DNA of 38,817 nucleotides. It comes from Spirochaetales bacterium. GTDB taxonomy: Bacteria > Spirochaetota > Spirochaetia > JABEVK01. Below the pieces are notes generated by a model. That model ran no database searches and was not told the origin of the DNA. It saw only the letters and a list, made by a program, of their open reading frames with translations. Where the stretch lies: positions 1 through 38,817 of the forward strand of contig JBAXAI010000035.1 of the NCBI GenBank assembly GCA_037142615.1, in the 5' to 3' direction. Shown here piece after piece: positions 24,901 to 38,817 of this stretch (position 1 is its first letter; the number at the start of each line of letters is the position of its first letter). The position numbers and the translations under genes were made by a program.

Positions 24901-24933
24901 CGGGTAACGCGTCAGGACGTTTGTCCTCGGATA
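24901..24933 (+). repeat. Array repeat, leftmost degenerate copy
   Basis: CGCGTCAGGACGTTTGTCCTCG matches 20/22 nt of the copy at 28411-28432; marks the left edge of the accessory region. Confidence 0.65.
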
Positions 24934-24992
24934 GTTGCGCAGCTTGACGACTGTAGCCGAAATGCCTGCGGTTGAATTGCTGGAGGATGACC

Positions 24993-25160
24993 ATGAGGCA
25001 AGTTTCTTTGCGAGAGTTCCGGACCCGCGGTGCTAAAGCCAGCCTCCGCGAGAGTTGGCGTCTGGCTCGGGAAGTGGGAGTGGATACTTTGACCGACGAA
25101 CAGATGGGCGAAGAAATCCAGTTAGCCCGAAGAACCATCCGAAACACGCCGACCCCATGA
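24993..25160 (+). pseudogene. Antitoxin (Phd-like start), probably internally deleted
   Basis: MRQVSLREFRTRGAKASLRESW...; short; ATGA overlap with a PIN gene. Confidence 0.55.
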
Positions 25161-25400
25161 GAGTGGTGGTTCTTGACACCAATGTCCTGATCTCTGCGGG
25201 AATCAACCCGGTTGGTCCACCGGGCAAGATCGTCAAGTCTTCGGCCGACCCAAGTTTCAAGCCTACGGTTTTCCACCCTATTGGCTGGAATTTCTCATTG
25301 CGAACAGTCTGATGGTGGACGAACCGCAACCTTGGCCTATTTCCCGGTTGAAATCAGGCAGAACGTTGCGGTCGTGCCTCCGTCACAGTACCTTGATGTT
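25157..25400 (+). pseudogene. PIN-domain toxin remnant
   Basis: MRVVVLDTNVLISAGINPVGPPGKIV, then loses frame; 3' end approximate. Confidence 0.65.
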
Positions 25401-25641
25401 GTCTGTTCCACCTCTTCCCGTCGTGCTACCAGAAGAGAACCGAGTACCTGGCCAAGGGTCGTCCCCGGGTACATTTTGCCCCGGTTGGTCGAAAACCACG
25501 GCTTGCGCCGAGATCACAGTTCCTATCATTTTTTTCATCGTACGAACTTAGGCTCTGGTTTGCCCAGAGGCAAATCTCCCTTTGCCGGAATCCGGTTTAT
25601 AATCACACGGAAGAGTGGAGACTTACTTCCGGAGGAAAGCG

Positions 25642-27528
25642 ATGCAGACGCAAAGAAACTACCTGAGACTGGCGTTGTTCCTGGGTGCCCTGATGCTCCT
25701 GAGCGGGACGGCAGGCGCCCAGGCTCGCGACTGGACGGTCCTGGTCTACCTGATGGCCGACAACAACCTTGAAACCGCGGCCATGACCGATATTGCCGAA
25801 ATGACCCAGGCTGATACCGGCACCAAGGCCTCGATTGTGATGCAGGTCACGGCCAGCGGCGACAACAATGATGAGCCCAAGGTGGTCAACCTCAACCGGA
25901 TCACGACGACCAAACGGCTCGAAGCCCGCAAGGGAAGCCTCAAGGAACTTGCCGACCTTGGAAAAATCAATTCCGCAGACCCGAAGAAACTGGCCGAGTT
26001 CATTTCGTGGGGAATCAAGACCTACCCGGCGCAGCATTATGCGCTGGTCTTGTGGGACCACGGCGGAGCCTGGCCCGGCTACGGAGAAGACGACGCCCAC
26101 GATGGTGCAGGCTTCGACCTGGCCGGCCTGACCAGCGCGATCACGGATGGCCTCAAGGGCGGTGCGGTCAAGCAACTGGATCTTTTGGGCTTCGATGCCT
26201 GCCTGATGGCCACCTATGAGGTCGCGCGCGCCGTCCGTCCGCTCGCCAAGTACCTGCTGGCCAGCGAAGAATTGGAGCCTGGACACGGCTGGGATTACTC
26301 CGTACTGACGGCTTTGGCAAAGAACCCCAATACCGAGGCACTGGGCAAGACCATCATCAAGGGGTTTGCCGACTCGTCGACCGCCGAGGGCGACCGTGAG
26401 GAGGTCACGCTTTCGCTGCTCAACCTGCAGAAGATGGACGCCCTCGATGCAGCCGTCAGCGCCTTCGCTACCTACGGCCGCACCAAGATCAGCCAGATAG
26501 CACCGCAACTCGGCCGCATCCAGAACAAGACCCAGGGCTTCGGAAAGTCCGCCAAACCGGAAGAAGACACCAACATGATCGACCTCGGGCAGTTCGTCAG
26601 CCTCTACGCCGAAACCGACACGGGTGCCGGCGCGATCAAGAAGCAGTTTGACGCCGCTCTGGCAGCGCTCGTGGTCGATAAGATCAGCGGAAACCTGACG
26701 AAAGGTTCTACCGGCCTGTCGATCTACTTTCCCAACCAGAAGCGCTACTACAGTGCCCCCTACGACGCCATCGACTCCGGGCCGTGGAAAGCCCTCTTGG
26801 CCGACTACTACAAGGGCGGCTCCAGCCTCTCGCCTGCCAAGAGCACCGGAACCTACAATCTCGCCTTCACCAACGCCGACAACACCGGCGACCTGTCGGT
26901 TGACGCCGACGGCATGGTCACCCTCACGGGCACCCTCCCCAAGGACGTTGTGACCAAAGTGGTCGAGGGCCTGTTCTCGTTTGGCATGATCGATGGTGAG
27001 GACCTGGTCTTCCTCGGCGACACCGAAGTCTTCATCGACGACGAGACCGGCGAAGTGAGCGGAACCTGGGACCTGCAGATCCTCAAGATGAAGCAAGGGA
27101 AGAACGAGGCCTACTGCTACAGCAGCGAAACCGGAAAGGAAGACGGCGGCTTCGAGTACACGATTCCCCTGCGCTACTACGAGAAGGGCAAGATCAGCGG
27201 CGACGGCGAAGACATCAGTTTGGTCCTGAATACCGATGCCGAGTACAACGTCACCGGCCAGGAGTACTTCAGCACCGTCCACGACAAGTGGGGGGCTTTT
27301 ACCCCGCGCAAGGGATCCGTCGTTGTTCCCACCTGGGAACGCGCCACCGGCGACGGTGAAAGCGTGACCGAGGCCACCACCGACGTCGGTTTTGACCCGA
27401 CAAAAGGCCTCACCTACGACTACGAAGCCATCGACACCGAAACCACCGACATCTACCTCGAACTGGAGGTCTACGACGTGGGCGACAATTCCGATTACGT
27501 CAGCTATGAGGGATCGGCGGCTAAATAA
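25642..27528 (+). CDS. Secreted clostripain-family (peptidase C11) cysteine peptidase
   Basis: Signal peptide, WTVLVYLMADNNLE, WDHGGAW (His), FDACLM (Cys), GLSIYFP; acidic C-terminal region; GGAGG RBS. Confidence 0.88.
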   Translation: MQTQRNYLRLALFLGALMLLSGTAGAQARDWTVLVYLMADNNLETAAMTDIAEMTQADTGTKASIVMQVTASGDNNDEPKVVNLNRITTTKRLEARKGSLKELADLGKINSADPKKLAEFISWGIKTYPAQHYALVLWDHGGAWPGYGEDDAHDGAGFDLAGLTSAITDGLKGGAVKQLDLLGFDACLMATYEVARAVRPLAKYLLASEELEPGHGWDYSVLTALAKNPNTEALGKTIIKGFADSSTAEGDREEVTLSLLNLQKMDALDAAVSAFATYGRTKISQIAPQLGRIQNKTQGFGKSAKPEEDTNMIDLGQFVSLYAETDTGAGAIKKQFDAALAALVVDKISGNLTKGSTGLSIYFPNQKRYYSAPYDAIDSGPWKALLADYYKGGSSLSPAKSTGTYNLAFTNADNTGDLSVDADGMVTLTGTLPKDVVTKVVEGLFSFGMIDGEDLVFLGDTEVFIDDETGEVSGTWDLQILKMKQGKNEAYCYSSETGKEDGGFEYTIPLRYYEKGKISGDGEDISLVLNTDAEYNVTGQEYFSTVHDKWGAFTPRKGSVVVPTWERATGDGESVTEATTDVGFDPTKGLTYDYEAIDTETTDIYLELEVYDVGDNSDYVSYEGSAAK

Positions 27529-27540
27529 GGATGTTTCCAA

Positions 27541-27730
27541 GGATATGCGGTGGTCGATCGGCTTTGGAAAGAAGGCGACACAGTCAACCTCGACCTGCCC
27601 ATGGAAGTGGGTGTCCCCGGTAGCCAGCCGCGGGTGCGGGCTACCTTCGGCAAGGTGGCGGTTGCTCACGGTCCGCTGGTGTACTGGGCGGAGCAAGTAG
27701 ACAACGGGGCCCAGTTTAATGGTCTGGCTC
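27541..27730 (+). pseudogene. C-terminal fragment of a GH127-like glycoside hydrolase
   Basis: GYAVVDRLWKEGDTVNLDLPM...GKVAVAHGPLVYWAEQVDN; no start or catalytic domain. Confidence 0.65.
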
Positions 27731-27786
27731 TCGGGTCGGCTTCCTTGGCCCGGAGGGAAAAGAACAACGTGGTAGTCGACCTGTGT

Positions 27787-28015
27787 GTGCTGGTGGTGTC
27801 GCCTGCCGAGTTCAACGAAGCAACCAAGGTGCCCGTGATTTGTCCCAACACAAGTGTTGGAACTTTCGCCAAGCGCCTTGGATTTGCTGTTCCCCTTCAT
27901 GGAATCACGACAACGGGCGTGGTTCGTTGTGATCAGCCACGCGAGAAAAGTCGATACCCTGCCAATGCCCATTATGGAAGAGGTACTGGCAAGGCTCGCA
28001 GCCATCTTTGAGTGA
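27787..28015 (+). pseudogene. PemK/MazF toxin remnant
   Basis: VLVVSPAEFNEATKVPVICP...GFAVPL...TGVVRCDQPR, then frameshift to KVDTLPMPIMEEVLARLAAIFE*. Confidence 0.75.
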
Positions 28016-28071: not shown

Positions 28072-28104
28072 CCACCCAACAAACCCGAACTCTGCGCCCA
28101 CGGC
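28072..28104 (+). repeat. Array repeat, 5' part only
   Basis: CCACCCAACAAACCCGAACTCTGCGCCCACGGC resembles 34760-34793 (PNKPKLGADG codons). Confidence 0.65.
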
Positions 28105-28115: not shown

Positions 28116-28366
28116 GGCGACACTGACAATCCGGGGCTTCGATGAGACTCTGGCGAAGACCCTTCGGGGCGAAAGCCACAAGCGGAAAGACACCAACGCC
28201 TACTCCGACTTCAAGCGCGGGGCACAAAACCTCAAGCACATCGTTGCTGAAGCACAAGAGATCCTGGTGCCGATCCCTGTGCTGGCGGTGCCCAGGAAAC
28301 TAGAAACCTCGCGGAGCTGGAGCAATTCTTGGCTACCCCGCGAGTCCACGTGCCACCGATGGGCGA
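28116..28366 (+). pseudogene. Deleted duplicate of the antitoxin-vapC pair at 33669-34312
   Basis: Three near-identical blocks of 33671-34137 joined by internal deletions. Confidence 0.85.
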
Positions 28367-28388
28367 CCATCCCGCGCACTCCTAGTGA

Positions 28389-28458
28389 CCCCAAACTCGC
28401 TGACGGCAAGCGCGTCAAGACGTTCGTCCTCGACACCAAGGTGTCCGGTCAATCAGTT
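28389..28458 (+). repeat. Array repeat with palindromic core
   Basis: Encodes PKL-ADGKRVKTFVLDTKVS; core GACACCAAGGTGTC at 28432-28445. Confidence 0.9.
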
Positions 28459-28472
28459 CCTCTGGACGAAGT

Positions 28473-28886
28473 TCATCGATCCAGCCAATTCTCGACTGCC
28501 AATCCCGGCACCCGGCCGAACTCGCTCGAGTTGTCGGTAACGACAGTCAGTCCGAGGCTACGAGCGTGGGCGGCGATGAGCAGATCATTCGGGCCGATCG
28601 GCGTGCCGTTGTTTTCGAGTCTCCAGCGGATGTCGGCGTAGTGTAGGTCGACACCGGGTTCAAAGGGAAGGATTTCCAGAGCGGTCAGCATGAGTTCAAG
28701 GCGCTCGCGAAGCGCCATCGAAACACCTTTTGCCAGCCCAAAACGAATCTCGGCGGCGACAATGAGACTAGTGCAAACGCAACCATCTCCAACACGCCTC
28801 AGGTGCTGCCCAACTAGCCCTTCGGGATCCTTTGCCAGCGAACTCAAGATGTTGGTGTCCAAAAGGTAGAGCAGCCCAACCGTCAT
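28473..28886 (-). CDS. vapC: VapC PIN-domain toxin
   Basis: YLLDTNILS, AEIRFG, PIGPNDLLIAAHA, VTDNSSEF.RVPGL. Confidence 0.92.
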   Translation of the reverse strand: MTVGLLYLLDTNILSSLAKDPEGLVGQHLRRVGDGCVCTSLIVAAEIRFGLAKGVSMALRERLELMLTALEILPFEPGVDLHYADIRWRLENNGTPIGPNDLLIAAHARSLGLTVVTDNSSEFGRVPGLAVENWLDR

Positions 28887-29125
28887 AGCCGGATGTCATC
28901 CACAGGCGGCAAACCCTTGTCCACGTCGGGAAAGGAATCGCTCAGCGGTGGCAGGCTTTCGAGCAGAGCCAGAAGGCCGCGCGGAGCTATGACCGGCTCG
29001 ACAATGAGGCGGTGTCCCTCTCGATGGATCAGCACTTCCTTGCCCGGAAGTTCCATTTCCCGGGGAATCCGCACCGCTTGATTGCGGCCGTTGCGAAATA
29101 GGCTGGCATGACGGATGATCGGCAT
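28883..29125 (-). CDS. vapB: VapB antitoxin, AbrB fold
   Basis: ASLFRNGRNQAVRIPRE; overlaps the vapC start. Confidence 0.9.
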   Translation of the reverse strand: MPIIRHASLFRNGRNQAVRIPREMELPGKEVLIHREGHRLIVEPVIAPRGLLALLESLPPLSDSFPDVDKGLPPVDDIRL

Positions 29126-29174: not shown

Positions 29175-29204
29175 GCCGACGACAAGCGCGTGAAGACGTT
29201 CGTC
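29175..29204 (+). repeat. Array repeat, truncated before the core
   Basis: GCCGACGACAAGCGCGTGAAGACGTTCGTC (ADDKRVKTFV). Confidence 0.8.
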
Positions 29205-29295: not shown

Positions 29296-29562
29296 ATGCA
29301 GGTTACCATAGACAAATTGGGTCGAATCCTCGTTCCGAAGTCCCTCCGGGAGAAGTATCACTTGACCGCAGGGACGTTGCTGGACTTGGAGGCGGACTCC
29401 AAGGGCGTTCAGTTCTCGCTGCGACTCCCCAAGAGCACCCTTGTGGAGAAAGAGGGAATCCTTGTCCTTCAAGGAGGCCCGGTGATCGACCTCGACGTGA
29501 CGGCCCTGATCAACCAGGAACGCGAAAGCCGGAACGTCGCCAGCCTGGGGAGCAGTTCGTGA
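29296..29562 (+). CDS. AbrB/MazE family antitoxin
   Basis: VTIDKLGRILVPKSLRE; GTGA overlap with a PIN gene. Confidence 0.85.
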   Translation: MQVTIDKLGRILVPKSLREKYHLTAGTLLDLEADSKGVQFSLRLPKSTLVEKEGILVLQGGPVIDLDVTALINQERESRNVASLGSSS

Positions 29563-29990
29563 AGGTTCTGTTTGACACATCGGTTCTCGTGCCCGCCCTC
29601 GTTGAACAGCTATCGAACCATGCGGTTTGTTTTGAGACGTTGAGAACCTACACTTCGGGCGGCAACATCGGAGTCTGCTCAACCCACTGCCTTGCGGAAT
29701 GCTATTCCACCCTGACCGCTTTGCCCTTGCCCCGCAGGGTCACCCCCCAGGAAGCGTTTGCCCTCATCGAAAGAAGCGTGAGGGGAAGGCTCGAAGTCAT
29801 CGAACTGGATACAGCCGACTACCGTGCCGCTCTTGCCAAGGTGGTCGAAGGCGGGCTGACCAGCGGCATCATCTACGACGCCCTGCACGCAAGGGTTGCC
29901 GAGAAGGCTGGTTGCCAGCGCATCTACACGTACAACCTCAATCACTTCCGCCCGCTGTGTCCTGCCAACGTCCTGGTCTCTGCACCCTGA
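29559..29990 (+). CDS. PIN-domain toxin
   Basis: (M)KVLFDTSVL, LAECYSTLT, IYDALH, IYTYNLNHF. Confidence 0.88.
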   Translation: MKVLFDTSVLVPALVEQLSNHAVCFETLRTYTSGGNIGVCSTHCLAECYSTLTALPLPRRVTPQEAFALIERSVRGRLEVIELDTADYRAALAKVVEGGLTSGIIYDALHARVAEKAGCQRIYTYNLNHFRPLCPANVLVSAP

Positions 29991-29992
29991 TT

Positions 29993-30055
29993 GGCGGCGA
30001 CGGCAAGCGCGTCAAAACTTTCGTCCTCGATACCGAGGTGTCTGTAGAATTGACA
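29993..30055 (+). repeat. Array repeat with palindromic core
   Basis: Encodes GGDGKRVKTFVLDTEVS; core GATACCGAGGTGTC at 30029-30042. Confidence 0.9.
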
Positions 30056-30090
30056 CCCAACGAAGCCGATTCTATCCTTACCGTAAGGAT
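30050..30090 (+). promoter_or_regulatory. sigma70 promoter and operator palindrome of the abrB-mazF pair
   Basis: TTGACA-17 nt-TATCCT; perfect inverted repeat ATCCTTAC-C-GTAAGGAT (30074-30090) over the -10/+1 region. Confidence 0.75.
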
Positions 30091-30098
30091 GTAAGAAC

Positions 30099-30317
30099 AT
30101 GTCGCCTGTCGTTGCCATCGTCTCCAGCAAAGGCCAGATCACCCTTCCCCAGACCGTTCGCCAAACTCTTGGGCTCCACCAAGGGGATCCGGTCCTCTTC
30201 GAGGAAAAAGATGGGGTCGTCGTTCTCCGGAAGCGCCCGAAGGTTGACGCAACCTGGGCGGCGGGGCTCGCAGCGACGTTGAGCGAATGGGAAGACAACC
30301 TCGATGACGACCTTTGA
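30099..30317 (+). CDS. AbrB/MazE family antitoxin
   Basis: VSSKGQITLPQTVRQTLGL; acidic tail. Confidence 0.88.
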   Translation: MSPVVAIVSSKGQITLPQTVRQTLGLHQGDPVLFEEKDGVVVLRKRPKVDATWAAGLAATLSEWEDNLDDDL

Positions 30318-30657
30318 GTCCGGGGACCTTGTCGAGGTTCCTTTTCCCTTCATCGACTCACAAAACACCAAGTTGCGCCCGGCGCTCGTGCTTTCCACTC
30401 CCGACTTTCAACGTCAGTCCGGAGCCTGCATTCTTGCGATGATCACCAGCGCCGAGCGCAACCGCTGGGGGAATGATTTTGTCCTGGAATCGTGGGCAGA
30501 AGCAGGTCTGCAAAAGCCTTCGTTGGTCCGTTGGAAGGTCTTCACGCTCGACGACTCCTTGATTGTCCGGCGCCGTGGCCGTTTGAAGGACAACGATCTT
30601 GCCAGGATTCGGGATGCTTTGGCCCAGGTGTTTTCGGGCTGGTCGCTTCCTGGATAG
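30304..30657 (+). CDS. PemK/MazF family toxin
   Basis: GDLVEVPFPF, KLRPALVLS, AMITS, AGLQKPS. Confidence 0.88.
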   Translation: MTTFESGDLVEVPFPFIDSQNTKLRPALVLSTPDFQRQSGACILAMITSAERNRWGNDFVLESWAEAGLQKPSLVRWKVFTLDDSLIVRRRGRLKDNDLARIRDALAQVFSGWSLPG

Positions 30658-30663: not shown

Positions 30664-31035
30664 GTCGAGCCGAGGTTTCATGCGTTGGGGAAGACTGAAA
30701 AAGGTCGCCTCCTCCTGTTGGTCTACACCGTTCGGAGCCAAAAGGTCCGGGTGATCTCGGCACGGAACCTGAGCAAATACCCAATTCCTGAGTTTGCCAA
30801 CGAAGCCGAGGAAGCTTTGTTCTGGCAGACCCATGACTCAACGGACTATGTTGAATGGTCCAAGGCCATGGCGAAGCCTGTGACGTTCGCGAACCTGCAA
30901 CCCAGTCTGAAAAGCATATCGCTGCGGCTACCCGAGCCCATGCTCGCGCGGCTCAAATCGCTCGCCAACGAACGCGATGTGCCTTACCAATCGCTGATCA
31001 AGATGATTCTGGCCGACCACCTCGCTCACTCCTGA
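30664..31035 (+). pseudogene. 5'-truncated copy of the BrnT-BrnA fusion at 38128-38640
   Basis: Colinear with 38275-38640 and has the same ISARNLSKYPIPEF junction; antitoxin part intact. Confidence 0.8.
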
Positions 31036-31037
31036 AG

Positions 31038-31058
31038 ACCAAAACTCGGCGACGCCGC
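31038..31058 (+). repeat. Array repeat, short 5' fragment
   Basis: ACCAAAACTCGGCGACGCCGC; follows the fusion gene just as the 38653 copy follows its paralogue. Confidence 0.55.
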
Positions 31059-31329
31059 TATGCGGCTTGTATCGCCTGCGCCGCGTGGATTCCCCGGTTG
31101 ACGACTCGACGGATTCCGCGCATTTTGTTCGTCTTCTGCCTTGGGGCCCTGTCGCATGCCGCTCTTGCCTTCTTCGCAGGTACCGTCTTCGCTCTGGTGC
31201 CCGTGATCGGCATCGTGGCGGCGATCGCGGGCGAGGCCTTCGACCTTTCCCGCCAGCTCAGTCGCTTGCGGACCCACTCTCCCACCGAGGTTCCCCTCGT
31301 CTTCCCCGATTTCTCGGCATTCTGACAGC

Positions 31330-31863
31330 ATGAAAACTCTTTTGTGGTCTGTCTTGGTTGCCCTGGCGCTGTTCTTCCCCGTGGCGGCTCAGCCCGTGTA
31401 CTGGGGCGTCCTTCCCAGTGTGCTGGTGGAGCCCTACGACGATGTCGAGGCTCTTGAAGTCAACCTCATTCCGCTCATCCTCGGTTTTGAACTCTCGCCC
31501 GGGCTACGTTTGGAGGTTCGTCCCTTGGTGGATCTGCAACTGCTCGAAGGTCGGTCGCCGGCCTTGAGCCATCTCGGTGGAACCTTCGCGTTGACCAAGA
31601 CATTCTTTGGTGAGAGCCCAGGGGTGTCGTGGCACCTCGGTCGGTTTTTTTCGGCAAACGTCAATGCCATCGACGGTGGCGTCGTCGTGATCTCGGGGGT
31701 CGAGCCCGGAGTCACGTGGACTGCGGATGATCAGTTCTCTCTCACGCTTTCACCTCAGCCGGGCGTCGATTGGTTTCTGCGGCCCGGTGCAGGTCAGGCG
31801 CCTTTGCTTCCCCACTTGGGACTCGTGGTCCACTTCGGCTGGACAACAGGAGAAACCAACTAG
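31330..31863 (+). CDS. Hypothetical exported protein, possibly beta-barrel-like
   Basis: Signal-peptide-like N-terminus, alternating hydrophobic strands, terminal HFGW. Confidence 0.6.
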   Translation: MKTLLWSVLVALALFFPVAAQPVYWGVLPSVLVEPYDDVEALEVNLIPLILGFELSPGLRLEVRPLVDLQLLEGRSPALSHLGGTFALTKTFFGESPGVSWHLGRFFSANVNAIDGGVVVISGVEPGVTWTADDQFSLTLSPQPGVDWFLRPGAGQAPLLPHLGLVVHFGWTTGETN

Positions 31864-32078: not shown

Positions 32079-32138
32079 GACTTTTGTGTAATCCAGTCAC
32101 AAAAGTCCTTTGACTTTTGTGTGATGTGCGTCTATTCT
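32079..32138 (+). promoter_or_regulatory. Promoter and repeated operator-like motif upstream of the ATPase
   Basis: TTGACT-17 nt-TATTCT, 6 nt before ATG 32145; GACTTTTGTG occurs at 32079 and 32112 and inverted at 32098. Confidence 0.6.
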
Positions 32139-32144
32139 GGGTCA

Positions 32145-33509
32145 ATGCAACGTCACTCACTCGAGCAACTGCTGGAATGGAAACTCCGCCCCGACCGAAA
32201 GCCGCTCATTCTTCAAGGAGCTCGCCAGGTGGGGAAGACTTGGATACTCAAGGAACTTGGGCGGTTGCACTACACCAACGTTGCCTACATCAACTTCGAA
32301 TCCAACGAACGCATGGAACGGCTTTTCACTGGGAATCTGGACCCCTCGCGCTTGCTGGCGGGGCTCCGCATCGAAGCCCGTTGTTCCATTGTCCCTGGAG
32401 CCACCCTGCTGATTTTCGATGAGATTCAGGCTTGTCCACCCGCGCTCACATCGCTGAAGTATTTTGCCGAAAACGCTCCCGAGTACCATGTGGCTGCGGC
32501 CGGGTCCCTGTTGGGGGTTGCCATGCACCGAGGTGTTTCTTTTCCGGTCGGCAAAGTGGAGTTTGTCCCGTTGTTCCCCTTGTCGTTTATGGAGTTCTTG
32601 GAGGCACTGGGCCAAGCCGACTTGGCCGTCGCCGTTTCCAGTAGTCAATGGGACTTGATGACGGCGTTACGCGAGCAGTTGACGGAGCACCTTCGAACCT
32701 ACCTCGCCTTGGGAGGAATGCCCGAAGTCGTGGCCTGCTACCTCGCCAGCCGGGACTGGGCTCAAGTGCGCCGCCTACAGCGGGCCCTGTTGCAGGCCTA
32801 CGAGCAAGATTTTTCCAAGTACGCTGAACCTTCCTTGGTCCCACGGCTACGGGCACTCTGGAACTCGATCCCGGCGCAACTGGCCCGGGAACAGAAAAAG
32901 TTTGTCTATGGCCTGATCAAGGCTGGTGCACGTGCCCGTGAGTTTGAGTTGGCCATCCAGTGGCTATGCGATGCGGGGCTCACCCATAAACTGATGCGTG
33001 CCTCCAAACCTGGAATGCCGCTGAAGGCCTACCATGACCCTTCCGCGTTCAAGCTGTTCTTTGTCGACTGCGGACTGCTCGCGGCGCATGCCGGGCTCGA
33101 ACTGGAGTCACTGCTGAAAGGCAATGCGTTGTTCGAAGAGTTCAAAGGTGCCTTGGCCGAACAATACGTGAGTCAGGAACTCCGCCTTCGGCAGACCTGG
33201 GAGGTGGCGTACTGGTCAAGCGACACATCGCAGGCCGAGGTCGACTTTTTGCTCCAAGCCTCGGGCCAGATCTTCCCTGTGGAAGTCAAGGCCGCCGAAA
33301 ACTTGCAGGCCAAAAGCCTCAAAGTGTTTCACGAAAAGTTCCAGCCGCCGGGTTGCTTTCGCTTCTCGCTCTCGAACTACCGACAAGAAACCTGGCTCAC
33401 CAACGTGCCACTGTACGCTTTGGCTAGCCTAAGTAGAGAACTCACCCCCGCCTCAGCTCCCTTGGCGCCTTCCCCGAATGGCCTCTGTGAATTGCCCCGG
33501 GTTCCCTGA
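32145..33509 (+). CDS. AAA_14 ATPase with DUF4143 C-terminus
   Basis: GARQVGKT, LIFDEIQ, AAGSLLG, GGMPEVV, KLFFVDCGLL, EVDFLL..PVEVK (PD-(D/E)xK-like). Confidence 0.88.
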   Translation: MQRHSLEQLLEWKLRPDRKPLILQGARQVGKTWILKELGRLHYTNVAYINFESNERMERLFTGNLDPSRLLAGLRIEARCSIVPGATLLIFDEIQACPPALTSLKYFAENAPEYHVAAAGSLLGVAMHRGVSFPVGKVEFVPLFPLSFMEFLEALGQADLAVAVSSSQWDLMTALREQLTEHLRTYLALGGMPEVVACYLASRDWAQVRRLQRALLQAYEQDFSKYAEPSLVPRLRALWNSIPAQLAREQKKFVYGLIKAGARAREFELAIQWLCDAGLTHKLMRASKPGMPLKAYHDPSAFKLFFVDCGLLAAHAGLELESLLKGNALFEEFKGALAEQYVSQELRLRQTWEVAYWSSDTSQAEVDFLLQASGQIFPVEVKAAENLQAKSLKVFHEKFQPPGCFRFSLSNYRQETWLTNVPLYALASLSRELTPASAPLAPSPNGLCELPRVP

Positions 33510-33529: not shown

Positions 33530-33580
33530 AGGATTAAAACACTCTGTTTGGACACCAAGGTGTCTGTATCATTGATTGAC
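33530..33580 (+). repeat. Array repeat with palindromic core, divergent left arm
   Basis: Encodes RIKTLCLDTKVS; core GACACCAAGGTGTC at 33551-33564, then TGTATCATTGATTGAC. Confidence 0.8.
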
Positions 33581-33668
33581 CTACTACTCGCCTTCCGACC
33601 AGCGGTAACCCGGTTGAATTTGCTGGCATCCTCAGCTAGCATTATGATGCAGAACATGGAGGCAACTC

Positions 33669-33920
33669 ATGGCGACACTGACAATCCGGGGCTTCGATGA
33701 GACTCTGGCGAAGACCCTTAGGGGTGAAAGCCACAAGCGGAATATCAGCATGAACCGGCTCGTGCTCGACATTTTAGGCGAGGCCCTCAAGGTGGGGAGC
33801 AGTAAGCGGCACTTTGACGATCTTGACCACTTGGCCGGCACGTGGTCCGAGGCCGAGTCCCGGGAGTTCGATGACAAAGTCGTAGACCTGGGAAAGGTCG
33901 ATCCGGCGGACTGGAAATGA
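33669..33920 (+). CDS. Ribbon-helix-helix (FitA-like) antitoxin
   Basis: MATLTIRGFD...ISMNRLVLDIL...LAGTWS; ATGA overlap with vapC. Confidence 0.82.
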   Translation: MATLTIRGFDETLAKTLRGESHKRNISMNRLVLDILGEALKVGSSKRHFDDLDHLAGTWSEAESREFDDKVVDLGKVDPADWK

Positions 33921-34312
33921 TTCGGATCCTGCTGGACACCAACGCCTACTCCGACTTCAAGCGCGGGGCACAAAACCTCAAGCACATCGTTGCTGAAGCC
34001 CAAGAGATCTTGGTTCCGATCCCTGTGCTGGCGGAGCTGAGGGTAGGCTTCCTTGGCGGTGCCCAGGAAACGAGAAACCTCGCGGAGCTGGAGCAATTCT
34101 TGGCTACGCCGCGAGTCCACGTGCCACCGATGGGCGAACAGACCGCACTGTTCTATGCCAGAATCTACTCGGATCTCAAGCGAGCCGGGACTCCCATTCC
34201 GATGAACGACGTCTGGATCGCCGCTTCCTCCATGGAAGCCGGTGCGGTTCTGATAACCAGCGACGCACATTTTCCGCATATTGCCGGCTTGCTGGTGAAA
34301 AGCGGCGCTTAA
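33917..34312 (+). CDS. vapC: VapC PIN-domain toxin
   Basis: ILLDTNAYS, LAELRVGF, PIPMNDVWIAA, ITSDAHF. Confidence 0.9.
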   Translation: MIRILLDTNAYSDFKRGAQNLKHIVAEAQEILVPIPVLAELRVGFLGGAQETRNLAELEQFLATPRVHVPPMGEQTALFYARIYSDLKRAGTPIPMNDVWIAASSMEAGAVLITSDAHFPHIAGLLVKSGA

Positions 34313-34388
34313 AAAGCCCCGTCCGGAACACCCACACTGGTTGCCAACGAATCGACCAAGGAACGAATCCAGTGTTTTTGAAGGAACC

Positions 34389-34682
34389 ATGATCACGATG
34401 CAGACGCCGGTGTCGGCGGAAGTACAGCAAGACCTTGATTGCCTCGTCACTGCCCTCGGAACCCGCCGGGCGTCGAGCGATATTGATCTGCTTGTCCTGA
34501 CGAACTCGGGTCTGACCGATCCGTCGGTACTCAACAAGGCCCTCCGACTAGACACCTTTGGCAAACTCAAACTTCCCCTCGATCTCATCGTCGAAGACCT
34601 GCAGACTTTTGAGGAGCGCCGACTGCTCCCCACGCTCGAACGGAAGATCGCTCGTCAAGGGAGAGTTGTTTATGCGACTTGA
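34389..34682 (+). pseudogene. Minimal nucleotidyltransferase (MNT antitoxin-like), catalytic GS motif missing
   Basis: SDIDLLVL, PLDLIV, IARQGRVVY present; the LFGSxARG segment is absent. Confidence 0.65.
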
Positions 34683-34738
34683 GTCCTTGGCAAGTTCGGC
34701 GGTTGAGCTCGTTGGCTCACGACTTCCCCCGATTTCAT

Positions 34739-34846
34739 AGGAGTGACTCCCATGCCAACCACACCCAACAAACCCAAACTCGGCGCCGACGGCAAGCGCG
34801 TCAAAACTTTCGTGCTCGATACAATTGTATCCCCTCGATTAGTTAC
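34739..34846 (+). repeat. Array repeat, full-length copy with RBS and ATG
   Basis: AGGAG, ATG 34752, MPTTPNKPKLGADGKRVKTFVLDTIVS; perfect palindrome GATACAATTGTATC at 34818-34831. Confidence 0.92.
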
Positions 34847-34872
34847 TCTGCGAGAGATTAGCGCGATTGAAG

Positions 34873-35775
34873 TCACCGGTTTCGATAGTCTGAGGGGGTA
34901 ACTCCTGTCTTGACCTTGAAGAGTTTACTGAAGTGCTGCGGATACTCAAAACCCAAAGAGTATGCCACCTCACCTACGGTCAGATTGGTGCCCAAAAGCC
35001 TGTTCTTCGCCTGATCAATAACATAGTCATGGATGTGTTCTTTCGCGCTCTTGCCTGTTTCAAGCCTCAACAGGTCACTCAAATAGGGACCGGACATATT
35101 CATGGCATCGCCACATTGACTGATTGTAGGAATTCCTGCGGTCAGTTGCTCGTCGGAAGTAAAGTAGGCTTCCAGATATTCCTCAAATCTGGCAACGAAA
35201 TCCTTGTTAAGGTTGCTTCTCGTGAAGAATTGACGATCGTAATAGCGACGGCAGTACTTCAGAATGGACTCCAAGTTCACAATGATCAATTCCTGCGAGT
35301 GCGTATCAATGTTCTGCCGGAGTTCCATATCGATTTTCTCAACCAAATCATTCAACATCGCTTTTTCGTTGTCAGACACATGGAGTGCTTCGTTGGCGAC
35401 GTAATCGAAGAAGGCGAACTGGCGAATCTTCCTGGCGAGTTCAGACTTCCTGAGCAGGTCAGGATGAAAGAACATCGACCAGCCCGCATCCGACTGATCT
35501 TTCACAGGATTTTCAAAACTCGCTACTTGGCCGGGCCCCATGAAGACCAGCGTTCCATCCTCAAAGTCATAGGAACTCCGCCCATACTGGATGACTCCTT
35601 CGAAGTTTTCCTTCAGGGAGACCACATACAAGTCGCTCGTCAGCCGAAACTTCCCAAAATCAAAATCCGACTTTGGCCATTTCCGAACGATGGAGATCAG
35701 AGGGTGACTCGGTTTCGGGAGGCCAAACGTCTTGTGGAGCGCCGAGATACTCCCTATCGGAAAGATGTCTTTCAT
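34873..35775 (-). CDS. AraC family transcriptional regulator
   Basis: YLSDLLRLETG, VAYSLGFEYPQHFSKLFK...TPSDYR. Confidence 0.92.
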   Translation of the reverse strand: MKDIFPIGSISALHKTFGLPKPSHPLISIVRKWPKSDFDFGKFRLTSDLYVVSLKENFEGVIQYGRSSYDFEDGTLVFMGPGQVASFENPVKDQSDAGWSMFFHPDLLRKSELARKIRQFAFFDYVANEALHVSDNEKAMLNDLVEKIDMELRQNIDTHSQELIIVNLESILKYCRRYYDRQFFTRSNLNKDFVARFEEYLEAYFTSDEQLTAGIPTISQCGDAMNMSGPYLSDLLRLETGKSAKEHIHDYVIDQAKNRLLGTNLTVGEVAYSLGFEYPQHFSKLFKVKTGVTPSDYRNR

Positions 35776-35816
35776 CGCACGTTACCTCTCTTGTCTTCTC
35801 TTTCTTTTGGGCGACA

Positions 35817-36716
35817 CTAGTACTTGACCCCAGTCATTTCTTCCGACAATACCCACAGGCGTTTTGCAGCGTCCTCATCATAAGAACGGGCGCTGGAGCG
35901 CACGACTACGGGGGCGCCTCTGAGTTCCATCAGTCCAGAAGGGCCATAGTAGTCTCCACTCGTCGCTTGGGGGTCGGTCGCCGCACGGAGTGTGGGCAAT
36001 GCTCCCGCTTCGGCGGCTTGCGAAAAGAAGGGGTTTAGGATCTGGAACATCATCGAATGCCGTTGCAACTCTGTTCGTGCTCAGCCCGGATGCGCGGCGG
36101 TCACCACGGGAGCATTGGTCTCCTTTTTGAGTTTTCGCGACAACTCATAGGCAAAATATAGATTGGCCAGCTTGCTGTCACCATAGGCATTGCCCGTGTT
36201 GTACTCGCGTTCTTTCCAGTTGATGTCGGAAAAATCGATAATTCCTTGGCTGTGGGCAATGCTGGAGGTTGCCACCACACGCGAGGCTCTTGTCTTCATC
36301 AATAGTGGCATCAAGAGACCGGTCAGCGCAAAATGTCCCAGATGATTGGTTCCCATTTGAATCTCAAAACCGTCCTTCGTTCTCGCGAAAGGACTGGCCA
36401 TTATGCCCGCATTGTTGATCAAGACGTCGATGCGAACGCGGCTCGTCAAGATTCCCTGAGCAAACGTTCGAACCGACTCCAAACTCGAGAGATCTAGATA
36501 CCTGATGTCGAATTGAGCCTGGGGGAAAGCCCGCCGGATCTCCTGAACAACGCCTTCCGCTTTTTGGATATCTCTGACGGCCAAGACAAGGGTTCCGTTT
36601 TTGCTGGCCAGGACTTTTGCGGCCTGTTTGCCGAGACCACTGGTTGCCCCAGTGATGACAATCACTTTGCCGTCTTGTGGTGGAACGTCGTTAGCTCCCT
36701 ATTTTTCTCTTGCCAT
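35817..36716 (-). pseudogene. SDR oxidoreductase (retinol dehydrogenase-like) with two in-frame stops
   Basis: One frame from ATG 36716: MAREK*GANDVPPQDGK..TGATSGLG..NNAG..YGDSK..AAHPG*ARTELQRH; TAG at 36699-36701 and TGA at 36081-36083. Confidence 0.85.
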
Positions 36717-36781
36717 GTACTGCGACTCCCCAAGAATTGATAAGGACATCATAGCTTAGACCAAAAAAATCAAGATACAGT

Positions 36782-36812
36782 TTTCGCAGAAGTTTGGATA
36801 TATTTCGCAGAA
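36782..36812. promoter_or_regulatory. Probable AraC-type tandem binding site
   Basis: TTTCGCAGAA twice with a 21 bp period, upstream of the SDR-araC unit. Confidence 0.5.
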
Positions 36813-36861
36813 TGCTAAGTGGAGCAGTTGCAGTTCTACCCCAATTGTGTTACGAGCAAGC

Positions 36862-37383
36862 ATGAACAATACAGACCGAAGAAACGAACTACTCAATCTG
36901 TTTCAGCAATGGGCCAATCACTTCGGCTATCTCGACGGGAAAATTCAGATTGCCTCCGACGAGGAACTGCAAGCCTTTGCAACCACCGACTGCACGTTGA
37001 CGTCACATCCTCCGCTTTGGGGAGCAAGACCGGGCCTGGAAAAGGCGGTGCCAGCAACGACGGTCCGCCGGAGCCTCCAGGGCCTGCTAAGGTCGTTCAA
37101 GGTGACACGACTCGAGATGCACGTCGCCGTGAACGAAACCAAGCTGTGCCTGTATTTCGTCGTCAAGGGACGGCTCAAGCTTTTTCCGTTCTTTGATGTC
37201 ATGAACGTCCCACTGGCCTTTGTGCTCGGCGCGGTCGAGACGCCCCAAGGTCTGCGAATCGACGAAGTTCATGAATGGCCCGCTGCTTCCCCCACAGACG
37301 CGCTGAAGGTCCTGGTGGCGCAGCATGCTTGGCCAGCAACGGCACGATTCGAGCAGCATGTCGCTTTTGGGGCTGTGTCGTAG
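36862..37383 (+). CDS. Hypothetical protein, possibly NTF2/SnoaL-like
   Basis: 173-codon ORF with plausible composition; no recognised motif. Confidence 0.5.
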   Translation: MNNTDRRNELLNLFQQWANHFGYLDGKIQIASDEELQAFATTDCTLTSHPPLWGARPGLEKAVPATTVRRSLQGLLRSFKVTRLEMHVAVNETKLCLYFVVKGRLKLFPFFDVMNVPLAFVLGAVETPQGLRIDEVHEWPAASPTDALKVLVAQHAWPATARFEQHVAFGAVS

Positions 37384-37403
37384 GGACTAACGCTATCGAA
37401 GGC

Positions 37404-37452
37404 CACGTCAACATGTTCGTGGTCGGCACAACGGTGGGCGGCAAATTGATTG
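37404..37452 (+). repeat. Array repeat, degenerate copy
   Basis: 33/49 ungapped match by hand to 38017-38065, including ATTGATTG at identical spacing. Confidence 0.55.
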
Positions 37453-37524
37453 TTCTGCATTGAACCGGGGACTCGATTGCCCTCTTGCTGCTGTTGCGTC
37501 ATACTTGTCAAGCAGGGGTACATT

Positions 37525-37897
37525 ATGCTGGCTGTCCGACTGGATCCGACGATGGGTGAGAAGCTCACCCGCCTGGCCCAAGAGACAGGCCGAAGTAAAA
37601 GTTACTACGTCAAACAGGCCATTTCTGACTTTCTCGACGAAAGGGAAGACTACCGGCTGGCCTTGGCCTGGAACGCTGAAGCTTCGGAAGTGGCTGGCAG
37701 CGATCTTGGACTATCTGGAGGACGAGATCGCTCCGCTTCCCGATCTGCGGTCCAAAGGGAAAGCCCTCGTGGGAGACAAAAAGGGCCTCTGGCGCTTCCG
37801 GGTGGCCGATTTCCGGATCATCTGCGAAGTTGAGGACACCCAGCTTGTTATCTTGGCCGTTGCGATCGGTCATCGCAAGAATGTCTATGAATGCTGA
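37525..37897 (+). pseudogene. RelB/RelE-type pair fused and frameshifted by deletions
   Basis: MLAVRLD...ETGRSKSYYVKQAI...EDYRLA runs directly into LAW; RelE body GKALVG..GLWRFRVADFRII..IGHRKNVY lies in another frame. Confidence 0.8.
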
Positions 37898-37928
37898 ATC
37901 TCACGTATACTCTTGAGCTGGAGCCCGG

Positions 37929-38003
37929 CCACGCCACTTCGTGGCTTAGGCCCCCACGCAGCGTTGCGGCTTACGCCCCCACGCCACTTCGTGGCTTAGG
38001 CCC
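37929..38003. repeat. Three tandem 25 bp hairpin units
   Basis: CCACGCCACTTCGTGGCTTAGGCCC at 37929 and 37979, with variant CCACGCAGCGTTGCGGCTTACGCCC between them. Confidence 0.85.
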
Positions 38004-38004
38004 C

Positions 38005-38067
38005 GCCGACGGCAAGCGCGTCAAAACTTTCGTGCTCGACACCAATGTGTCTGTAGGATTGATTGAC
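38005..38067 (+). repeat. Array repeat with palindromic core
   Basis: Encodes ADGKRVKTFVLDTNVS; core GACACCAATGTGTC at 38038-38051, then TGTAGGATTGATTGAC. Confidence 0.92.
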
Positions 38068-38092
38068 TTTTTGGTCGCGTGACACGCGCCGA

Positions 38093-38121
38093 TTGACGTC
38101 TGTATATTTCTGCAACATACT
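38093..38121 (+). promoter_or_regulatory. sigma70-type promoter, probably leaderless
   Basis: TTGACG-17 nt-CATACT, 6 nt before ATG 38128. Confidence 0.6.
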
Positions 38122-38127
38122 TTCATC

Positions 38128-38640
38128 ATGATCAATGCCGAGTTGGCTGGCTTCGATTGGGACGAGCACAACTCCGACAAGAACCGGAACAAGCATGGCG
38201 TCGAACCGACGGAATGCGAGGAAGTCTTCTTTCACCAACCACTCGTGGTGAGCCCAGACGTCAAGCATTCGCAGGTCGAGCCGAGGTTTCATGCGTTTGG
38301 ACCGACCGACAAAGGACGCCTGCTTATGTTGGTTTACACCGTTCGGAGCCAGAAGGTCCGGGTGATCTCAGCACGGAACCTGAGCAAATACCCAATTCCT
38401 GAGTTTGCCACGGAAGCCGAGGAGGCTCTGTTCTGGCAAGCCCACGACACTGTGGACTACGTTGATTGGTCCATGGCGAAGCCTGTGACGTTCGCGAACC
38501 TGCAACCCAGTCTTAAGAGCATATCGCTACGGCTCCCCGAACCCATGCTCGCGCGGCTCAAATCGCTCGCCAACGAGCGCGATGTGCCGTACCAGTCTCT
38601 GATCAAGATGATTCTTGCCGACCATCTCGCCCACTCCTGA
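38128..38640 (+). CDS. In-frame fusion of BrnT (DUF497) toxin and BrnA/CopG-like antitoxin
   Basis: GFDWDEHNSDKNRNKHGV...RVISAR joined to IPEFATEAEEALFW..HD..DY...ISLRLP...DVPYQSLIK. Confidence 0.82.
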   Translation: MINAELAGFDWDEHNSDKNRNKHGVEPTECEEVFFHQPLVVSPDVKHSQVEPRFHAFGPTDKGRLLMLVYTVRSQKVRVISARNLSKYPIPEFATEAEEALFWQAHDTVDYVDWSMAKPVTFANLQPSLKSISLRLPEPMLARLKSLANERDVPYQSLIKMILADHLAHS

Positions 38641-38751
38641 AGGAGACTACCCATGCCAACCACAACACACGGCCGACCCAAACTCGGCGCCGACGGCAAG
38701 CGCGTCAAAACTTTCGTTTTGGATACAAATGTGTCCCTTTAATTCATTGAC
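38641..38751 (+). repeat. Array repeat, most intact copy, with RBS, ATG and a 29-codon ORF
   Basis: AGGAG, ATG 38653, MPTTTHGRPKLGADGKRVKTFVLDTNVSL* (stop 38742); core GATACAAATGTGTC at 38722-38735. Confidence 0.92.
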
Positions 38752-38817
38752 GAATACGAGCCCTAGGAGCCTGTCGGAGTAGCGGACGCGAATTCCCACT
38801 AATGCTGAACGGTGATA

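Follow-up and report, generated by a model that had tools for sequence, protein, structure and literature searches.

Among comparable tandem systems are the SCCmec and pseudo-SCC composites at rlmH. Sedentary chromosomal integrons are one-directional arrays of small units with many toxin-antitoxin (TA) pairs and duplicated units, which differ between close relatives. Islands in dusA reportedly integrate in the 5' part of a protein-coding gene and supply a replacement 5' end. Islands with dusA-specific integrases are described in the available part of one report (PMC8409611). At ssrA of Dehalococcoides, arrays of target-gene fragments delimit tandem islands, some of them without an integrase; according to the accessible sections of that study, the integrase is a large serine recombinase adjoining attL, and islands without an integration module are discussed as cis-mobilisable (PMC3146451). 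For streptococcal ICEs and IMEs, the excerpted text describes site-specific accretion and CIMEs, leading to tandems of elements without recombinase genes that have two or three members and lie at 3' ends or tRNA genes (PMC5704250). Arrays of tRNA-gene fragments also delimit the tandem tycheposon islands of Prochlorococcus, which in the available part of the preprint have a tRNA gene as target, a tyrosine recombinase and few elements per genome (bioRxiv 10.1101/2020.12.28.424599).

The island studied here belongs to an uncultured freshwater spirochaete, represented by a metagenome bin of 76 contigs (G000). The window, i.e. the whole stretch of 38,817 nt that was analysed, is an entire contig (C35), and the array therefore runs off the contig end. 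The island, situated at the PIN-PhoH gene phoH2, resembles those at SCC, ssrA and the tycheposon sites, but has a 5' end as target and integron-sized units. As at ssrA and in SCC, a series of tandem islands in a highly variable region is bounded by numerous direct repeats of one end of a conserved single-copy gene. The ssrA and SCC islands have the 3' end as target and a short repeat (at ssrA it measures 20 bp), whereas at phoH2 it is the 5' end that is replaced, and an element must therefore provide a ribosome site, a start codon and 25-34 codons. Those islands range from several kb to tens of kb and contain integration modules that can be recognised, while at phoH2 the repeats are 60-140 nt long, many units measure 0.6-1.3 kb, and a single recombinase gene was found, a broken one in the sister species G002. 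With more than ten junctions per genome the phoH2 island exceeds the streptococcal tandems, and with the tycheposons, as far as the source extract goes, it shares growth at one end by repeated integration beside a fixed gene (bioRxiv 10.1101/2020.12.28.424599). Islands in dusA differ in their tyrosine recombinases and in being single large islands or prophages, with no arrays of mini-units. The functional likeness to integrons lies in a one-directional, TA-rich array of small units, some duplicated, that differs between close relatives; the island lacks, however, intI, attI and a single-strand-folded attC, its repeat is double-stranded coding DNA, and its cargo genes occupy both strands and in many cases seem capable of their own expression. 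Since tandem islands delimited by target-gene fragments are described for ssrA and tRNA genes, the reading of the array as a kind of its own in the first-pass annotation is not supported.

The repeat is real, and its strong copies are found at one locus only, which consists of the window and the end of contig C14 (Table 1). Thirteen repeat positions had been listed beforehand. In a search with an nhmmer profile built from eight copies, five of these correspond to strong copies, all on the + strand (E 1e-23 to 6e-33). Four are significant fragments, three of them matched by the profile and the fourth, at 28073-28104, recognised by its similarity to another copy; the remaining four (24901, 29245, 31880 and 37404) are no better than chance, including a 19-nt core with four mismatches at 31880 and an unscored fragment of about 20 nt at 29245. 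A 26-nt repeat pattern matched six times in the window against 0.00 expected (100 shuffles). With up to five mismatches it has nine matches in the whole genome, six on C35 (+) and three on C14 (-), and none on any further G000 contig; on contigs other than these two, the best profile matches had E values of at least 0.26. The copies are thus limited to one locus and one orientation, with no scatter in both orientations. Among 12 genomes of the order, a degenerate core pattern is present in two, G000 and its sister species G002.

Table 1. Repeat copies and cargo genes of the phoH2 island in the window
Feature	Position	Strand	Evidence
Doubtful leftmost repeat copy, 21/30 bases	24896..24925	+	Family D4; no nhmmer match at E<=10
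Clostripain-family peptidase (Peptidase_C11)	25615..27528	+	Pfam E 1e-47
Fragment, first half of repeat (codons after ATG), 32 nt	28073..28104	+	91% to 34762-34793, family D11
Decayed, internally deleted duplicate of vapBC unit 33669-34312	28116..28384	+	Families D9, D6, D7, 91-97%
Repeat, second half, core and element-side arm, without ATG part	28344..28468	+	nhmmer E 1.4e-23
VapC (PIN) and MazE/AbrB-type antitoxin	28473..29125	-	Pfam; 90% over 781 nt to G002 unit
Repeat copy, truncated, without core	29175..29203	+	nhmmer E 1e-3
AbrB-type antitoxin and PIN toxin	29296..29990	+	Pfam; missing between same two neighbours in G002
Repeat copy without ATG part, beginning 8 nt past PIN gene stop	29957..30065	+	nhmmer E 3.6e-23
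MazE-MazF/PemK pair	30099..30657	+	Pfam; 87% over 666 nt to G002
Truncated duplicate of BrnT-BrnA unit 38128-38640	30664..31037	+	Families D3, D5, 87-93%; Pfam
Fragment, first half of repeat	30999..31073	+	nhmmer E 0.066; 28-nt family D10
177-aa protein, no Pfam family	31330..31863	+	
AAA_14-DUF4143 ATPase	32121..33509	+	Pfam; 32475-33580 98.9% identical to G002
Repeat fragment, core and element-side arm	33537..33586	+	nhmmer E 4.9e-4
FitA-like RHH antitoxin and VapC (PIN)	33669..34312	+	Pfam; 95.9% over 713 nt to G002
Weak nucleotidyltransferase-like ORF	34341..34682	+	E 9e-4, under Pfam cut-off
Full repeat copy with AGGAG and ATG; core a perfect 5+4+5 palindrome	34741..34854	+	nhmmer E 6e-25
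AraC-family regulator	34873..35775	-	Pfam
Short-chain dehydrogenase as two ORFs (probably broken)	35817..36665	-	Pfam
178-aa protein, no Pfam family	36847..37383	+	
Doubtful decayed repeat copy	37405..37456	+	nhmmer E 0.65
RHH antitoxin and ParE-family toxin	37525..37897	+	Pfam
Three tandem 25-nt hairpin units, dispersed REP-like repeat, inside repeat copy	37929..38004	+	Family D12
Repeat copy, consensus core and element-side arm	37934..38075	+	nhmmer E 5.7e-33
BrnT toxin and CopG/BrnA antitoxin, single 170-aa ORF	38128..38640	+	Pfam; 85% over 777 nt to G002
Last copy before contig end, full-length, including AGGAG and ATG	38646..38758	+	nhmmer E 3.9e-29

The two fullest copies carry AGGAG and ATG and read MPTT...DGKRVKTFVLDT(N/I)V, and in all copies the homology to the gene stops sharply at the same N-V codons, in agreement with the first reading of the window. 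Over 13 codons shared by 11 copies, 40 of 53 differences from the consensus are at third positions, and 30 changed codons are synonymous against 13 that are not; the copies have therefore diverged as working coding sequence. Past the gene-homologous part follows an element-side arm of about 20 nt, which is common to 6-10 of 10 cassette copies and lies outside any phoH2 coding constraint. Between the copies, Pfam confirmed the TA pairs and accessory genes seen earlier. The accessory units of G000 are mostly TA pairs, and most units are very small, with one TA operon and no recombinase; no conjugation-type Pfam family was found among the ORFs scanned.

The intact PIN-PhoH gene with this N-terminus that had been predicted to end the array is present on C14 of G000. 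It encodes a PIN_4-PhoH protein of 475 aa, its 5' end is itself one repeat copy, and the copies on C35 and C14, which are unjoined in the assembly, point towards it. Empty sites could be identified in four related island-free genomes (G003 and three of a sister genus), where a conserved neighbour, homologous to the gene ending contig C20 of G000, lies directly upstream of phoH2, with a gap of 133 nt at the two loci L039 and L040. In G002 the same homologue is located at 0.1-7.3 kb of contig C14 and phoH2 at 90.5 kb, so that about 83 kb lie between them. A same-strand repeat of the phoH2 5' end was found at 0 of 75 relatives' loci with enough upstream sequence, and neither G002 nor the C20 end showed the junction expected to be the oldest, in which a native 5' end would adjoin the conserved neighbour. 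Another assembly (P0002) has a near-identical phoH2 with five differences past the junction, but a different short 5' end, which resembles the copy one unit upstream in G000.

The G002 array comprises 10 profile matches, all on the + strand, at 62,756-88,883 of its contig C14, and is physically joined to its phoH2, as this contig and the one starting with phoH2 overlap by 149 nt. Units shared with G000 are 98.9%, 98.6%, 95.9%, 90%, 87% and 85% identical, against 80.8% for phoH2 and 84.7% for the 9.4 kb downstream, and they stand in a different order in the two genomes. Breakpoints between strains had been expected at the core. For several whole units they do coincide with the repeat; the unit 29197-29993, for example, stands in G000 between two units that adjoin each other in G002, and the breakpoints lie in the repeat. 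Elsewhere they do not. Contig X5, which comes from another study, connects 34320 straight to 38004, as in G002, and the breakpoint at 34320 is outside any repeat and has no shared letters; the end of the 98.6% block is not in a repeat either. At 82,244-82,330 of G002, a native-type 5' end (MSN...) with a promoter-like upstream stretch is displaced inside the array and followed by core and element-side arm, which bears out the proposal that an old 5' end is pushed into the array.

A recombinase near the array had been anticipated as well, and only a relic was found. In G002, a broken large-serine-recombinase gene begins about 50 nt past the junction 84,082-84,170 and has the same orientation; the closest of its intact relatives measure about 500 aa and carry Resolvase and Recombinase domains. 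The arm beside it departs from the consensus arm and this copy retains about 8 more gene bases, and the relic may therefore represent another element family. Neither the G000 nor the G002 array contains an intact recombinase, and the 14 kb and 7 kb of the G000 array contain none at all; a relative of the relic was not found in the G000 assembly (best E 1.8), where 10 Phage_integrase matches and a single resolvase are all on other contigs. No excised circle or empty-site read was seen among the contigs compared.

We consider it likely that serial site-specific integration into phoH2, with each element bringing a substitute 5' end, has built a flexible genomic island upstream of this gene, of which the window would be the gene-proximal part. 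Integration would occur at the D-T-N-V codons, at the start of the PIN_4 domain. The incoming element would carry the substitute 5' end at its right end, in some cases apparently limited to ribosome site, ATG and 25-34 codons and in others with an added promoter-like stretch. In this way phoH2 would be kept whole, and the previous 5' end would be shifted upstream and persist as a direct repeat, with the left arm of the element itself after it. The recombination site probably measures about 50-60 bp, with the imperfect palindrome GAYAC-N4-GTRTC as its putative centre, and a large serine recombinase is the most likely enzyme, with about an even chance. Integration chemistry, enzyme identity and present-day mobility are what we infer here. 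Small units may be leftovers of decay, or else non-autonomous and mobilised by an enzyme whose gene lies elsewhere, and deletion, truncation and homologous exchange between copies would have scrambled the array afterwards. The truncation of many copies falls at a single internal point, a 10-bp palindrome that is the site of REP-like units, and this common cut point is left unexplained by a simple integration model. The observation made in the first-pass annotation was thus partly confirmed and its interpretation partly supported; each check that it had named gave a favourable result.

A possible, though clearly less probable, alternative is a true non-autonomous cassette system, in which mini-units of 0.6-1.3 kb, each made up of one operon and a site of about 60 bp, have at no time been autonomous and are captured and shuffled singly by a recombinase in trans. 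It is favoured by units of 684, 701 and 580 nt with just one TA operon, by substitute 5' ends starting 8-15 nt past the last stop codon, by the same units in another order in another species, by duplicated units within one array (families D3, D5, D6, D7 and D9), by the conserved element-side arm and by the lack of a recombinase in the G000 array. The same arrays hold, however, larger units with operons and a recombinase relic, so that decay of ordinary elements can give the same picture; in addition, many copies are truncated, some boundaries have no site, and neither circles nor a trans-acting enzyme were found. The units of the platform without recombinase and mobilised in trans that was first proposed could also be decayed remnants.

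Homologous recombination alone, i.e. a single old duplication of the 5' end and, after it, exchange, deletion and Campbell-type insertion via 60-120 nt of homology with no site-specific enzyme, is improbable. The copies are long enough for RecA-dependent exchange, some breakpoints lie away from the core, and both unit loss between copies and the 5'-end switch in P0002 could arise so, but it leaves unexplained why unrelated cargo lies between copies, why an arm is conserved beyond the homologous part, why homology breaks off sharply at the same codons in every copy, why a displaced native 5' end is joined to the arm, and why a serine-recombinase relic stands beside a junction. A classical integron or an integrase-less attC cluster is already contradicted and very improbable: the array is dense, TA-rich and made of small units like chromosomal integrons, but no integron integrase was found (best TIGR02249 score 78 bits, cut-off 265), the folding of eight junction strands does not surpass that of shuffled sequence (z -1.5 to +0.5), which supports the earlier view that the repeats are not attC-like, the junctions have no inverted repeats, and the repeat is coding sequence diverged at synonymous sites. 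An assembly or binning artefact with false repeats could be suspected in a metagenome bin whose contigs break at the repeat, but has next to no probability, as public runs of at least two studies yield independent contigs that bridge junctions without differences, the window is matched at 100% identity by three metagenome contigs, and a second species has the same architecture.

Serial integration into phoH2 remains the preferred reading of this locus. If instead the units do form a true cassette system, the island would be a functional analogue of the integron, with a double-stranded site that originated as a gene's 5' end.

Copies of the 5' end of phoH2, a PIN_4-PhoH gene, recur in the window between about 28.0 kb and its end, all on the plus strand. 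The genome is a metagenome bin of 76 contigs (4.27 Mb), of which the window is the complete contig C35. The nucleotide profile for the repeat searches was made from eight copies. Nine of the 13 positions listed as repeat copies in the first-pass annotation could be substantiated, but those at 24901, 29245, 31880 and 37404 were no better than chance. A 26-nt repeat pattern matched six times in the window, against 0.00 matches expected from shuffled sequence. The first 25 kb carry ordinary sugar and redox genes with patchy conservation within the genus. A short repeat (about 55-80 nt) is located at 25452-25532 and also occurs on contigs C39, C33, C9 and C60 (88-92% identity); all four public sequencing runs have contigs that end there.

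Repeat copies of the window and order of features on contig C14 of the same genome, towards phoH2
Contig	Position or order	Strand	Feature	Basis
C35 (window)	28073-28104	+	32-nt repeat fragment	within-window repeat comparison
C35 (window)	28344-28468	+	strong repeat copy	profile match, E within 1e-23 to 6e-33
C35 (window)	29175-29203	+	repeat fragment	profile match
C35 (window)	29957-30065	+	strong repeat copy	profile match, E within 1e-23 to 6e-33
C35 (window)	30999-31073	+	repeat fragment	profile match
C35 (window)	33537-33586	+	repeat fragment	profile match
C35 (window)	34741-34854	+	strong repeat copy	profile match, E within 1e-23 to 6e-33
C35 (window)	37934-38075	+	strong repeat copy	profile match, E within 1e-23 to 6e-33
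C35 (window)	38646-38758	+	strong repeat copy	profile match, E within 1e-23 to 6e-33
C14	1st		BrnT/BrnA-like unit	
C14	2nd		truncated repeat copy	
C14	3rd		4.5-kb stretch with histidine kinase, LuxR-type regulator and DUF5122 protein	
C14	4th		IS110-family relic	
C14	5th on		copy, RHH-ParE unit (701 nt), copy, BrnA-like unit (580 nt), phoH2	

The cargo between the copies of the window includes three PIN/antitoxin pairs and a decayed fourth, one MazEF pair, one RHH-ParE pair and a BrnT-BrnA unit with a truncated duplicate. An AAA_14-DUF4143 ATPase, a clostripain-family peptidase, an AraC regulator with a split dehydrogenase and two ORFs without a Pfam family were also found. A BrnT toxin and a CopG/BrnA antitoxin domain are fused in one ORF of 170 aa (38128-38640), and the BrnT/BrnA copy at 30685-31035 has lost most of its toxin part. 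The short-chain dehydrogenase beside the AraC regulator (35817-36665, minus strand) falls into two ORFs and probably represents a pseudogene. The AbrB/PIN unit at 29254-29993 has a second copy outside the array on contig C29 (6172-6678, 79-86% identity), about 1.2 kb from a REP-like unit.

A full copy of the repeat comprises a ribosome site, the ATG and 25-34 codons up to the D-T-N-V codons (the core), where homology to phoH2 ends. The element-side arm of about 20 nt that follows the core in 6-10 of 10 cassette copies, with the consensus GTGTCTGTA-NN-ATTGATTGAC, is absent from the phoH2 gene. The end of homology falls within an imperfect 5+4+5 palindrome, GAYAC-N4-GTRTC; in the copy at 34788 the palindrome is perfect and its sequence different. 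A putative outer half-site, TTGAC, read by eye, lies 11 nt from the palindrome in 6 of 11 copies. Over the 13 codons shared by 11 copies from two species, third codon positions hold 40 of the 53 differences from the consensus, and 30 of the changed codons are synonymous while 13 are not. Divergence of the copies thus took place while they were serving as coding sequence; a structural DNA repeat would be expected to show another pattern. Many copies share an internal cut point, a 10-bp palindrome, at which individual copies carry a 25-nt hairpin unit zero, one or three times. This hairpin unit is dispersed (window 37929-38004 and contigs C2, C5, C29, C37, C39 and C72) and looks like a REP-type element targeting the 10-bp palindrome. 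In the intact phoH2 gene, one hairpin unit plus 2 bases gives nine extra in-frame codons.

Outside the window, a genome-wide search revealed the repeat on contig C14 only, in three minus-strand copies near the contig end. The copies lead to an intact phoH2 gene and the innermost is its 5' end, which confirms the earlier proposal that the array is directed at an intact PIN-PhoH gene. Its product of 475 aa carries PIN_4 at residues 49-185 (E 2e-30) and PhoH at residues 264-463 (E 1e-48) in a single protein. The array of this genome is split across the two contigs, between which no overlap and no bridging homology via the sister species was found. The substitute 5' end of phoH2 starts 13 nt past the stop codon of the upstream antitoxin gene (locus L001 on C14, 11949-13376 and upstream) and lacks a promoter-like stretch, so transcription of the gene may start from the upstream toxin-antitoxin (TA) unit.

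PhoH2 is present in 37 of 41 sampled genomes. Of the related loci, 75 had 300 nt or more of upstream sequence, and none of these showed a same-strand copy of its own phoH2 5' end (five further loci with too short upstream sequence were left out); one related locus showed an opposite-strand 26-nt match. The degenerate core pattern was detected in two of 12 genomes of the order, namely the present one (G000) and a sister species of the same genus (G002), both of them metagenome bins. The ten profile matches in G002 are all on the plus strand, at 62.8-88.9 kb of its own contig C14, the end of which overlaps by 149 nt with the contig beginning with phoH2. Island-free phoH2 sites were found in the relative G003 and three sister-genus genomes; the direct upstream neighbour of phoH2 in these four is a homologue of the gene at the end of G000 contig C20. 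In G002 this homologue is situated at 0.1-7.3 kb of the array-carrying contig, so about 83 kb accumulated between it and phoH2, of which a 17-kb part is a carbohydrate-use cluster without recombinase. Recognisable copies are confined to the gene-proximal 28 kb in G002 and to 14 kb plus 7 kb in G000. The phoH2 of G003 (locus L037 9911-12922, contig C104) matches over residues 36-381 only, within an open frame that continues to a total of 1004 aa, and the sequence 3' of it is not syntenic; either the gene is fused, the region is rearranged or the contig is chimeric.

The array is best read as the product of serial site-specific integration, with the first codons of the PIN domain as the target. 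Each element would bring a substitute start for phoH2 and push the old start inwards, and decay and homologous exchange would follow integration. Two types of start could be distinguished. The phoH2 genes of G002, G003 and a further relative, G004, start with MSN and have about 65 nt of upstream sequence in common, with a -10-like motif. The MPTT type was carried by no other phoH2 gene among the 50 other loci listed (several of these being the same genomes twice) and is also found on three database proteins of the same clade. Inside the G002 array, at 82,244-82,330, there is an MSN-type 5' end together with its upstream stretch, followed by the core and the consensus arm, as would be expected of an old 5' end under the displacement model. 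In a further G002 copy, the same promoter-like stretch is fused to an MPTT-type start. In our view both types are natural starts of phoH2 that belong to different lineages and are transported by elements. The MSN start that the G002 gene has at present may itself have come with an element and would then be compatible with the model.

Units common to G000 and G002 showed 98.9% (1106 nt), 98.6% (1001 nt), 95.9%, 90%, 87% and 85% identity, compared to 80.8% for phoH2 and 84.7% for the 9.4 kb downstream. The order of the units differs between the two genomes. The G000 unit at 29197-29993 splits two units that are adjacent in G002, with both breakpoints inside the repeat. A vapBC unit and the BrnT-BrnA unit following it are directly adjacent in G002 and 3.7 kb apart in G000; a contig of the public run X5 joins 34320 to 38004, giving the G002-like adjacency. 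Strain differences had been expected to fall at the repeat: island content does vary with breakpoints at repeats, but two breakpoints lie outside any repeat. The junctions of the window are bridged by contigs of public runs from at least two studies. This comparison covered assembled contigs, a type of data in which circles and rare variants are invisible, and several joints with sides of 29-32 letters, or with C14 copies aligned to the window, were left out. Coverage gaps were seen at 35016-37405 in X5 and at 34538-37883 in a second run, X10; the joining contig backs the X5 gap only, and the X10 gap was therefore set aside as evidence. A metagenome scan gave three contigs, which are not independent since all are 100% identical to the window. 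There were no matches in a scan of viral contigs, and none to window 37900-38817 in plasmid and phage collections. Five short ORFs in other assemblies run from the repeat into the arm. P0002, a phoH2 protein from another assembly, has five differences from that of G000 after the junction, and its 5' end is short, like the copy one unit upstream in G000.

In several respects the locus is like the tandem islands of the accretion or CIME type: target-gene fragments are present at the unit boundaries in the orientation of the gene, with the intact gene at one end, the site is empty in relatives, and content varies between strains with breakpoints at repeats. The same logic applies to tandem accretion with cis-mobilisable elements (PMC5704250), to the Dehalococcoides ssrA islands (PMC3146451) and to tycheposon islands (bioRxiv 10.1101/2020.12.28.424599); closer parallels are possible in the supplementary documents on the latter two. 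Unlike tycheposons, which use a tyrosine recombinase and a tRNA-gene target, the locus has no tRNA gene in the window and no Phage_integrase match on C35 or C14. None of the matches listed from the PhoH2 literature describes phoH2 as an integration hot spot; a 2026 preprint on PhoH2-associated non-coding RNAs concerns a different subject.

Searches for Phage_integrase and resolvase domains gave no tyrosine or serine recombinase on either array contig of G000. In the G002 array, the junction at 84,082-84,170 is followed at a distance of about 50 nt by the relic of a serine-recombinase gene in the same orientation. The relic has kept its Resolvase domain (residues 18-161, E 5e-22), is interrupted by an in-frame TAG and breaks off after about 200 residues. 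The suggestion of a recombinase near the array thus holds for the sister species, in the form of this broken gene, but not for the array of G000. The nearest intact relatives of the relic are about 500 aa long with 44-50% identity, and all three that were tested have Resolvase and Recombinase domains; matches to its nearest relative at E<=1e-30 occur in 7 of 401 genomes of the class, all at 30% identity or less except the relic itself. In serine-integrase elements, the integrase gene is usually located beside attL. Elements of the large-serine-recombinase type typically encode there a protein with Resolvase and Recombinase domains (plus zinc ribbon) and have att sites of about 40-50 bp whose imperfect dyad symmetry centres on a dinucleotide. 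An integrase gene beside attL is also described for the Dehalococcoides ssrA islands (PMC3146451). A link of the relic's enzyme family to the small cargo segments, or mini-units, is suggestive only, because the relic's junction keeps about 8 more bases of phoH2, its arm departs from the consensus and no relative of the relic was found in G000.

That the mini-units are true cassettes moved in trans, and not debris of autonomous elements, is possible but less likely than not. Equally tentative is the wider reading of a second, integron-independent capture system, in which units would be inserted at the start of phoH2 by a recombinase whose gene lies elsewhere, probably one of the large serine type. 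TA and accessory cassettes with promoters would then enter one by one through a double-stranded site of about 60 bp. The platform would never be inactivated, since each cassette would carry a substitute phoH2 start, and cassettes would travel between species, as units are 99% identical where core genes differ by 15-20%.

The resident tyrosine recombinases of G000 (contigs C1, C2, C7, C8, C40 and C71) and its 199-aa resolvase (C57) have no repeat copy nearby, so nothing ties them to the site. An intact serine recombinase of 575 aa in G002 (locus L138 4668-6392, contig C1), with Resolvase, Recombinase and zinc ribbon domains, is 29% identical to the relic and likewise has no repeat copy near; it directly follows a putative RadC-like ORF (judged by eye), and this locus may be another integrative element. 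IS110 was rejected as the driver: the sole Transposase_20 match in G000 is a 145-aa C-terminal relic in the C14 array (L001 14601-15038, corresponding to C14:87200-87637), adjoining a repeat copy and a 28-nt fragment of the end of a PIN gene. As it is truncated, runs in the opposite direction and lies beside the PIN gene fragment, it is read as a secondary insertion. An integron with attC sites was rejected as well: the best TIGR02249 match in G000 reached 78 bits against a cut-off of 265 and lies on C8, away from the locus. Folding of four junctions on both strands was no better than that of shuffled sequences (z -1.47 to +0.51) and no inverted repeats were present at the junctions, in agreement with the initial impression that the repeats do not resemble attC sites. 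A CRISPR, tRNA or known RNA family was dismissed with no Rfam match at gathering score and no tRNA gene in the window.

What stands out, under serial integration at the PIN codons, is the location at the 5' end of a gene, a repeat of unusual length and coding character, units whose size and TA content recall integrons, and the near-identity of these units across species. Tandem islands marked by target-gene leftovers are a known principle at tRNA, tmRNA and rlmH targets. Under the same reading it applies here to a protein-coding gene, and to its 5' end, which obliges every element to supply a working translation start; the invariant DNA encoding the PIN motif is pointed to as an integration target. 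The array resembles a chromosomal integron in look and behaviour without any integron machinery. The locus provides a tangible example of convergent gene capture in uncultured freshwater Spirochaetales, members of a phylum about which little is known, together with a defined candidate site for recombination, about 60 bp long. Should the enzyme be identified, a site-specific recombinase would become available whose natural target is known and whose natural donor sites are numerous; this would be useful for the study of cassette exchange and would account for the accumulation of TA pairs at the phoH2 locus.
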